Source: a virus
DNA: 12,821 bases
UHGV virus genome: UHGV-0294068
Reading direction: 5' to 3' (one strand)
Below are positions 10,988 to 11,349 of this stretch, piece after piece. The notes below the pieces were generated by a model. The model saw only the letters and a list, made by a program, of their open reading frames with translations. It was not told the DNA's origin and searched no databases. Numbering within the stretch: position 1 is the stretch's first letter; each line of letters opens with the position of its first letter. A program made the position numbers and the translations under genes.

Positions 10988-11236
10988 ATGAAAGGTGCAT
11001 TAGGTAAGAAGGAACTCCTGGCGGTGGTGCCACTGTCATGGAGCACTATCGACCGTATGGAGCGCGCAGGGGAATTTCCTAAACGCTGGTATATCACCGA
11101 TAAACGCTGCGCATGGAACCGTGACGAAGTTGAGCGTTGGCTTGATGAACGTCAGGCAGCAAGCCCGGCAGAGTTCCAGGGTAAAAAACCTCCTGTTCAG
11201 CAACGTGTATATCGTCCCGTGAGCAACGCTGCATGA
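10988..11236 (+). CDS. AlpA/excisionase-like HTH protein
   Basis: 82 aa; LSWSTIDRMERAGEFPKRWYITDKRCAWNRDEVERWL matches the AlpA/Xis-type HTH pattern; GAGAGG RBS. Confidence 0.7.
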   Translation: MKGALGKKELLAVVPLSWSTIDRMERAGEFPKRWYITDKRCAWNRDEVERWLDERQAASPAEFQGKKPPVQQRVYRPVSNAA

Positions 11237-11349
11237 GTGCGCTGCTAAGGCACTGGATCAAATGGTCAGGATGGTACTTATTCCTGGCCTCTGTTTCAGC
11301 ATGGCTTTATCTGCTGGCATTAATTTTCAGAGAGGGTTGGATTAAGTGA
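11233..11349 (+). CDS. Putative small membrane peptide (38 aa)
   Basis: ATG overlaps the excisionase-like stop (ATGA) and its stop overlaps the next start (GTGA); translation MSALLRHWIKWSGWYLFLASVSAWLYLLALIFREGWIK has one hydrophobic helix. Confidence 0.35.
   Translation: MSALLRHWIKWSGWYLFLASVSAWLYLLALIFREGWIK

Follow-up and report, generated by a model that had tools for sequence, protein, structure and literature searches.

A conserved 38-codon gene between the AlpA and PerC genes of phiV10/epsilon15-type prophages encodes a predicted single-helix membrane peptide

Does the short open reading frame (ORF) between the genes for an AlpA-family and a PerC-family protein in the virus genome UHGV-0294068 encode a protein, and what might such a protein do? 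The stretch of DNA analysed in this study (12,821 nucleotides, referred to as the window) carries on its + strand, from about 7.8 kb onwards, the early-left operon of a prophage of the phiV10/epsilon15 type (Uetakevirus). The ORF in question is part of this operon: it extends from ATG 11233 to TGA 11349 and specifies 38 amino acids (sequence MSALLRHWIKWSGWYLFLASVSAWLYLLALIF REGWIK). An earlier note, made from the letters of the sequence, had described it as a membrane peptide with a single helix that overlaps an excisionase-like gene by ATGA and a PerC-like gene by GTGA, and had likened its place in the operon to that of the Kil-type division inhibitors of phage lambda. The coordinates, the sequence and both overlaps were reproduced in our analysis.

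The length of the ORF says little: 38 codons alone are not significant, as 53 ORFs of at least 30 amino acids overlap the last 3.3 kb of the window. It is the comparative signal rather than the length that argues for a real ORF. We compared the window with 91 fetched loci (92 sequences); codon positions were counted for the 15 distinct nucleotide alleles, and the codon alignment comprised eight lineages with a mean amino acid identity of 67% and a minimum of 47%. Of these, 91 carry the ORF without a break, and only in Klebsiella pneumoniae ATCC 13883 is it disrupted, by a deletion. The frame is open in the intact prophage and phage copies of Escherichia coli, Salmonella, Enterobacter, Klebsiella, Citrobacter, Pseudocitrobacter and Superficieibacter, with breaks confined to a few deletion or frameshift alleles, and it is also intact in variants of 39 and 32 amino acids. 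The frame is thus kept in related prophages, one of the points on which the earlier note had let its prediction stand or fall. Moreover, the variable sites fall mainly on third codon positions (16, 10 and 26 for positions 1, 2 and 3), and the sole indel in the alignment of the eight lineages has a length of 3 nt. The ratio of nonsynonymous to synonymous substitution rates (dN/dS) is 0.24 for the peptide as compared to 0.10 for AlpA and 0.11 for PerC, and it reaches 1.25 to 1.83 in the two other frames of the + strand, for which the corresponding ratio of proportions (pN/pS) is 1.2 and 1.7. When the alignment columns were shuffled, none of 2000 shuffles reached the observed pN/pS and only three of 2000 were free of stop codons in all eight lineages. 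Taken together, this comparative evidence identifies 11233-11349 as a genuine protein-coding gene. Coding on the antisense strand was considered as well and rejected: one reverse frame has a pN/pS of 0.35, but it is closed by stop codons and no reverse ORF spans the stretch. The low value is to be expected since the third positions of this frame coincide with those of the peptide frame.

The gene is interlocked with both of its neighbours. At 11233-11236 (ATGA), its start codon shares bases with the stop codon of AlpA (TGA 11234-11236), and at 11346-11349 (GTGA) its stop codon shares bases with GTG 11346, the start codon of PerC. These overlaps of four nucleotides, from which the earlier note had argued for translation, are a general feature of the family: they are kept on the AlpA side in nine of nine lineages, as ATGA or GTGA, and on the PerC side in eight of nine, there as GTGA in the window and as ATGA in the other lineages. 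The ninth lineage, phage BUCT554, has lost the overlap with PerC. We conclude that GTG 11346 is the true start of PerC, because the sequence KLSRLEKYH that follows it is conserved where other lineages have an ATG at this place (consensus KLxRLEKYH), and because the match to PHROG 868 spans residues 1-99 of 99. The RefSeq record of phiV10 places the start of PerC at an internal ATG that corresponds to window position 11379 (L001 3480) rather than to 11346.

Translational coupling by termination and reinitiation is well established, and the start regions of the three genes suggest that it operates here. In all nine lineages the peptide start is devoid of a usable Shine-Dalgarno sequence, with duplex energies to the anti-Shine-Dalgarno sequence of only -0.9 to -4.9 kcal/mol; the values are -5.3 to -9.1 kcal/mol for AlpA (-8.9 kcal/mol in the window) and -5.7 to -7.7 kcal/mol for PerC, a range that holds for each of the nine lineages, even for BUCT554 with its non-overlapping peptide and PerC genes. 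Since the peptide lacks a Shine-Dalgarno sequence and the overlap with AlpA is kept in the nine lineages, it is probable that the peptide is made by ribosomes that terminate on AlpA and reinitiate at the overlapping ATG, and its level would thus be tied to that of AlpA. Judging from these pairing energies, the bases GAGAGGG at 11330-11336 do double duty as codons of the peptide and as the Shine-Dalgarno sequence of PerC. At neither overlap was there any indication of RNA structure, as the folding energies were no better than those of shuffled sequences (z +0.90 and -0.19). The codons for W11-S12-G13-W14 at 11263-11274 (TGG TCA GGA TGG) are nearly invariant at synonymous positions in the eight lineages (TCA in eight of eight; GGA in six, GGT in two), and an ATG in the PerC frame falls within these codons; given the small number of lineages, this invariance may be due to chance.

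What kind of protein does the gene encode? In the window allele, the best hydropathy window of 19 residues covers residues 14-32 (core WYLFLASVSAWLYLLALIF), the hydrophobic part quoted in the earlier note, with a mean Kyte-Doolittle value of 1.92. The same residues form the best window in six of eight family members scored, the remaining two have it displaced by one residue or two, and the mean ranges from 1.6 to 2.3. AlphaFold2 predicts a single continuous helix for residues 3-37 with a mean predicted local distance difference test score (pLDDT) of 86. Hydropathy and structure prediction thus show the product as one alpha-helix with a hydrophobic core that can span the membrane, in good agreement with the single-helix membrane peptide of the earlier note. 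The core is preceded by a basic flank rich in tryptophan (residues 1-13) and followed by the short tail REGWIK. The N-terminal flank has the consensus M-T-A-L-x-R-H-W-x-K-W-S-G with two to three Lys/Arg residues; its net charge lies between +1 and +3 in each lineage, and that of the C-terminal flank (R-E-G-W-I-K/R) between -1 and +1. Based on these charges and the positive-inside rule, the predicted topology in the inner membrane is N-in/C-out. Tryptophan makes up 13-18% of the residues and is found at both predicted membrane interfaces. W11, S12, L18, L27 and I31 are invariant and L4, H7, G13, Y15, A23, W24, A29, G35 and W36 nearly so; these columns are distributed over the whole helix. An amphipathic N-terminal helix was also considered, and the hydrophobic moment of 0.44-0.59 is reached by 2.5-15% of shuffled sequences. 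Neither a sequence search of the PDB nor a fold search of BFVD returned anything meaningful, and a fold search with a lone helix has no discriminating power. Judged by sequence, the peptide is almost certainly translated and inserted into the membrane.

The gene is not new to the catalogues, which list its uncharacterised orthologues as epsilon15 gp32 and phiV10 p35. The peptide matches the profile of PHROG 17484 with an E value of 2.5e-26 (residues 1-38 on profile positions 1-38), and it shares with this family the length of about 38 amino acids, the single transmembrane helix and the location between the AlpA and PerC genes downstream of RecT. The PHROGs category of the family is "moron, auxiliary metabolic gene and host takeover". 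Epsilon15 gp32 (NP_848240), phiV10 p35 (YP_512290) and Tyrion gp33 are labelled "membrane protein", and UniProt lists the entries Q858E3 ("uncharacterized") and Q286Y2 ("integral membrane protein"). These entries, which are predictions, agree with the peptide in length, family and position between AlpA and PerC, and there is no substantive difference; the window allele shares 97% of its residues with phiV10 p35 and all of them (100%) with the PAS61 protein. Searches of Pfam (E <= 1) and PADLOC (E <= 10) gave no family match for the peptide, the one match in NCBIfam, to a sigma factor, is spurious (E 0.49, 10 bits as compared to a cut-off of 264), and Rfam has no match at the locus on either strand. 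The bacterial databases present a different picture: the NCBI Prokaryotic Genome Annotation Pipeline (PGAP) omits the gene from every RefSeq bacterial record inspected. For the 20 E. coli genomes shown, it lists only AlpA, PerC, MT-A70 and RecT under the stretch, and in the Klebsiella plasmid pKPN-498 a gap of 110 nt between AlpA and PerC is left unannotated (L099 9005-9113, equivalent to window positions 11237-11345). Thus, there is an annotation gap in bacterial RefSeq, and some phage records erroneously count the stretch as part of PerC. The comparative evidence justifies annotation of the gene.

The features of the operon and of the peptide gene are compiled in the table.

Table. Features of the early-left operon and of the peptide gene (window coordinates)
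Feature	Position	Strand	Remarks
HTH (helix-turn-helix) repressor gene	7847-8431	+	
Terminator-like hairpin	8452-8471		Directly 3' of the repressor gene
Promoter-like site	8523-8551	+	TTGACA / 17 nt spacer / AATTAT; 3' of the terminator-like hairpin
Small gene, 50 aa	8585-8737	+	PHROG 898; directly 3' of the putative early-left promoter; uncharacterised
Small gene, 104 aa	8725-9039	+	PHROG 856; 3' of the 8585-8737 gene; uncharacterised
PD-(D/E)XK exonuclease gene	9239-10060	+	
RecT gene	10057-10938	+	
AlpA-family (excisionase-like) gene, 82 aa	10988-11236	+	Pfam PF05930 Phage_AlpA; PHROG 66; strong Shine-Dalgarno sequence
Peptide gene, 38 aa	11233-11349	+	PHROG 17484; selection in its own frame
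Transmembrane core of the peptide (predicted)	11272-11328	+	Codons 14-32; hydropathy, AlphaFold2 helix
GAGAGGG, Shine-Dalgarno-like	11330-11336	+	Within codons R33-E34-G35; 9 nt 5' of the PerC GTG
PerC-family gene, 99 aa	11346-11645	+	GTG start; Pfam PF06069; PHROG 868 (residues 1-99 of 99)
DUF1382 gene, lambda orf63 family	12285-12479	+	Pfam E 1.8e-30; end of the operon, directly before the integrase gene

The promoter-like site upstream of the two small genes is likely the early-left promoter of the operon that contains the peptide gene. Since no terminator-like site was found on the + strand between this site and the peptide gene, the gene would belong to a repressed and inducible early operon. 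By analogy with the lambda PL promoter, it would be silent in the lysogen and expressed upon infection or induction only. A G+C-rich hairpin is located between RecT and AlpA (10947-10965: GCGGCGC, loop CACGC, GCGCCGC; no T run follows), and the epsilon15 record labels a stem-loop at the equivalent place "transcriptional pausing"; the hairpin could influence the amount of transcript that reaches AlpA, the peptide gene and PerC. PerC is followed by a gene for an MT-A70 methyltransferase and the DUF1382 gene and then, on the - strand, by the 3' part of the integrase gene. The gene order around the peptide agrees with that of phiV10, epsilon15 and Tyrion. The order RecT-AlpA-peptide-PerC is constant among the relatives. 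What follows PerC differs from one relative to the next and includes DUF1317, a winged-helix gene and either Dam or MT-A70, among others. Moreover, the AlpA subfamily, the peptide and the PerC subfamily all occur in the same 36 records of the phage collection (36 of 36), a strict linkage that fits a functional module as well as a block in which recombination is rare. Elsewhere in the window, on the - strand, the other small membrane ORF mentioned in the earlier note (1356-1478; 40 amino acids, MNKCNALLYAMVIGFGLAAGIRVYIAWELLINLAWSAIRG) has a full-length match in PHROG 5525 (E 1.4e-28); its ATG and the stop codon of the upstream gene for a 189-residue protein (1478-2047) have one base in common. 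The peptide has no similarity to this product.

Over the 801 bp that surround the ORF, the window and phage phiV10 share 99.4% identity; among 5426 complete E. coli genomes, 556 contain this stretch. A tblastn search found the peptide in 35 phage records of Escherichia, Salmonella, Enterobacter and Klebsiella with identities of 66-100%, and it also occurs in prophages of Citrobacter, Pseudocitrobacter and Superficieibacter. IMG/VR contigs contain 305 relatives, the epsilon15 allele is found on at least 1000 contigs, and two more distant forms of 39 amino acids are present in metagenome assemblies. The family appears to be a narrow one: HMMER, run exhaustively against 1.84 billion representatives, returned only five matches to small peptides, all of them members of the family itself, and no chromosomal bacterial homologue. 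A divergent variant of 32 amino acids is present in the Enterobacter phage BUCT554 (MTALKKHIGRWSDVYMYLAVVAYLMWLAAVIS; L098 2389-2487): it has retained the ATGA overlap with AlpA, but most tryptophans and the REGWIK tail are gone, and its ORF no longer overlaps PerC but stops 13 nt before it. Broken, fused or altered alleles were seen among the proteins P0032, P0018, P0019, P0001 and P0005 and in locus L011. In the latter, from K. pneumoniae ATCC 13883 (L011 3001-3072), the deletion fuses codon 24 of the peptide to the middle of PerC. The others comprise one in-frame fusion of the peptide to PerC with 114 amino acids, proteins of 119 amino acids in which a frameshifted AlpA runs on into the peptide, and two peptide alleles with a changed C-terminus. 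The AlpA gene of phage TL-2011b (NC_019445) has several indels and one N, and its sole annotation is a hypothetical gene of 111 nt (L100 ~1330-1440); the peptide and PerC that follow are 97-99% identical to the window. A recombination junction in AlpA was considered for this phage and rejected, as the N and the indels in the divergent stretch probably reflect a problem of sequence quality. The peptide is also carried by 13 Klebsiella plasmid records. In the 244-kb IncF conjugative plasmid pKPN-498 of K. pneumoniae (NZ_CP008829.1, 142-154 kb), an apparently whole Uetakevirus-like prophage is present: the 18 kb inspected contain replication genes, the repressor, the exo-RecT-AlpA-peptide-PerC stretch and the integrase, and the integrase adjoins the partition genes of the plasmid.

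Which role might such a peptide play? We give about even chances to the idea that the peptide is a small membrane protein of the early lytic phase and modulates a partner in the inner membrane by helix-helix packing, an idea that draws on the analogy with other small membrane proteins. A protein of this size is too small to be an enzyme, the residues within the membrane are more conserved than anchoring alone would require, and comparable small membrane proteins in bacteria and phages act by docking to larger proteins; these points suggest helix-helix packing. With fewer than 50 amino acids, one transmembrane helix and sequence-specific constraint within this helix, the peptide has the properties of a small membrane-protein modulator: constrained residues lie deep in the membrane (L18, A23, W24, L27, A29, I31), and the whole helix is under purifying selection. 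According to this model, the early-left operon would fire upon infection or induction, ribosomes that complete AlpA would restart at the overlapping ATG to make the peptide, and PerC would be initiated at its own Shine-Dalgarno sequence within the last peptide codons. The peptide would then insert into the inner membrane in the N-in/C-out orientation, dock on an integral inner-membrane protein and modulate this protein during early host takeover.

Several observations weigh against this model. The present data do not single out a target, and the conservation of the transmembrane core has neither a clear alpha-helical periodicity nor a single face, so that a docking surface is only hypothetical. 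The dN/dS of the peptide is about twice that of the neighbouring genes, the tail is wholly absent in phage BUCT554, and the conservation of the C-terminal REG(W) may stem in part from the embedded Shine-Dalgarno sequence of PerC rather than from a function of the peptide. Moreover, the sequence of the peptide was not found in the literature searched, which also contained no functional study, and the paper on vB_EcoP_ZX5 does not discuss the gene. If the peptide has a target in the membrane, the likeliest single class is the divisome or the septal cell-wall machinery, which would result in a transient block of division; we put this forward tentatively and with low confidence. DNA entry and superinfection exclusion come next, followed by a control of the FtsH type over the labile regulators encoded next to the peptide and, at the end, by membrane damage. 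It is tempting to speculate that AlpA, the peptide and PerC form one module in which the peptide serves either as an inhibitor of division or cell-wall synthesis or as a membrane-anchored controller of the stability or activity of AlpA and PerC, although we regard this proposal as doubtful. If the former were true, the peptide would be the first transmembrane inhibitor of division or cell-wall synthesis described for a phage of Gram-negative bacteria; the latter would link the state of the membrane to excision and early gene activation. In either case, a membrane-based mechanism would be added to the early host takeover by enterobacterial phages. With its clean genetic handle, the peptide is an easy experimental target in a very common prophage.

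How do the alternatives compare with this model? The tentative proposal that the peptide is a functional analogue of Kil is actually a special case of it: division would be blocked via transmembrane divisome or septal wall proteins rather than via FtsZ. The gene is part of the early operon of a temperate phage in which no recognisable Kil is present among the window proteins scanned with Pfam, and small division inhibitors that span the membrane once do exist, such as Gp11 of phage PhiNM1 (PMC11237401); but the sequence, the physical type and the position in the operon all differ from Kil, and the Kil-like place next to the promoter is taken by the genes at 8585-8737 and 8725-9039. Superinfection exclusion or a block of DNA entry, in which an inner-membrane component used by incoming phage DNA would be altered and the infected cell thereby shielded from a second infection, is unlikely. 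Small inner-membrane proteins of phages are often exclusion factors, as exemplified by Imm of T4 and gp15 of HK97, and the PHROGs category of the family is compatible with such a role. On the other hand, the gene has neither a promoter nor a Shine-Dalgarno sequence of its own, there is no PADLOC match, and since it belongs to a repressed early operon it would not be expressed in lysogens, the cells that would benefit most from exclusion. Quite unlikely is a modulator of proteolysis resembling CIII of lambda, which would bind FtsH (or HflKC) and thereby stabilise labile AlpA and PerC-like proteins. Such a role would be in line with the strict co-occurrence and the translational linkage of the three genes, and the tail R-E-G-W-I-K weakly resembles R-D-G-W-K-R of lambda CIII; but the co-occurrence may just reflect a conserved genome block, BUCT554 lacks the tail, and there is no Pfam match. 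The resemblance to CIII itself (6 of 27 identities around R[DE]GW, pairwise BLASTP E 0.005) was rejected as being at the level of chance: with the closest alleles, an equally high score was reached by 75-89 of 2000 shuffles (about 4%), and with the more divergent ones by 344-1518 of 2000.

Still less probable is a membrane-damaging peptide of the type I toxin, viroporin or holin type that oligomerises and depolarises the inner membrane. Small toxic membrane peptides resemble the product studied here in size, hydrophobicity and aromatic content, and translation limited by reinitiation would keep its level low. However, no Pfam family matched at E <= 1, with the type I toxin and holin families included, Rfam revealed no antisense RNA family, the lysis cassette is distant (in phiV10 it lies beyond the integrase gene), and early depolarisation would hurt the replication of the phage itself. 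The two remaining alternatives attribute no function to the peptide. That the ORF is just a relay which couples the translation of PerC to that of AlpA would account for the overlaps on both sides and for the Shine-Dalgarno sequence of PerC inside the ORF; this is very improbable, as purifying selection acts on the amino acids, members with as little as 41% identity still have the transmembrane character, and in BUCT554 an intact hydrophobic ORF and the Shine-Dalgarno sequence of PerC persist even though the ORF no longer reaches PerC. Finally, we consider it extremely improbable that the stretch is not a gene at all, i. e. that it is a chance ORF or a 5' extension of PerC in another frame. 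It is true that short ORFs are common here and that PGAP omits the gene, and in the Klebsiella phage records MK422448 and OM816836 (L004, L005 2539-2907) PerC is called as a protein of 122 amino acids that starts at an ATG within the peptide ORF in the +2 frame. Yet, the frame of PerC is closed upstream by stop codons (TAA 11343-11345 in the window; also in Superficieibacter) and its pN/pS over the stretch is 1.7, so that the ORF is not an N-terminal extension of PerC and the longer PerC in the two records is a misannotation; moreover, the statistics of frame conservation argue against a chance ORF.

With modulation of an inner-membrane partner as the preferred reading, it remains to compare the peptide with known systems. 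The claim of the earlier note that the gene occupies a position comparable to that of lambda kil does not hold: kil, flanked by cIII and gam, is located promoter-proximal to the recombination genes (gam/bet/exo), whereas the peptide gene is promoter-distal (exo-RecT-AlpA-peptide-PerC). According to PMC3961180, as cited in PMC11323111, Kil has 47 amino acids and acts on FtsZ in a ZipA-dependent manner. Both proteins are small products of leftward early operons in temperate phages of enterobacteria; however, Kil is of a soluble type, unrelated in sequence and encoded close to the promoter, whereas the peptide is a predicted membrane helix whose gene adjoins an excisionase-like gene. Kil has no transmembrane segment (best hydropathy value over 19 residues 0.67 as compared to 1.6-2.3 in the peptide family), and homology was rejected since BLASTP gave no alignment at E <= 100, Smith-Waterman scores were at the level of shuffled sequences and no Pfam match was obtained at E <= 1. 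Thus, a block of division by the peptide, if there is any, would act through the membrane, unlike that by Kil. Should the phage possess a Kil-like gene at the corresponding place, the genes at 8585-8737 and 8725-9039 would be the candidates; they sit where lambda has kil and cIII, and their products have no match in Pfam.

The better positional analogue is the exo-xis region of lambda, which the stretch around the peptide gene resembles in its promoter-distal location next to an excisionase-like gene and in the presence of DUF1382 in the window and of DUF1317 in relatives. In lambda, this region between recombination and excision/integration contains the small genes orf60a (DUF1317), orf63 (DUF1382), orf61, ea8.5 and ea22. 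The exo-xis genes are small and non-essential, and they tune the decision between lysis and lysogeny as well as lysogenisation and induction (PMC3824215, PMC6213356, PMC8614690). The difference lies in the product: PMC8614690 mentions no membrane protein among those encoded in the region, and the peptide has no homologue there.

With respect to the product, parallels come from small membrane proteins of other systems. The bacterial regulators AcrZ, MgrB, SgrT and MgtS bind a larger membrane protein (reviewed in PMC12648545). They are chromosomally encoded, regulated by stress and without sequence relation to the peptide, but like the peptide they have fewer than 50 residues and a single helix. 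SPO1 gp56 from a phage of Bacillus subtilis and SidA of Caulobacter are small division inhibitors that span the membrane once. Similarly, the early small membrane protein Gp11 of the Staphylococcus aureus phage PhiNM1 binds MurG and DivIC and blocks division (PMC11237401). Although homology between these three proteins and the peptide is not established and their hosts are different, they are small, produced early or in response to stress, have one membrane helix and bind membrane components of the division and cell-wall machinery, and it is this model that we adopt for the peptide.

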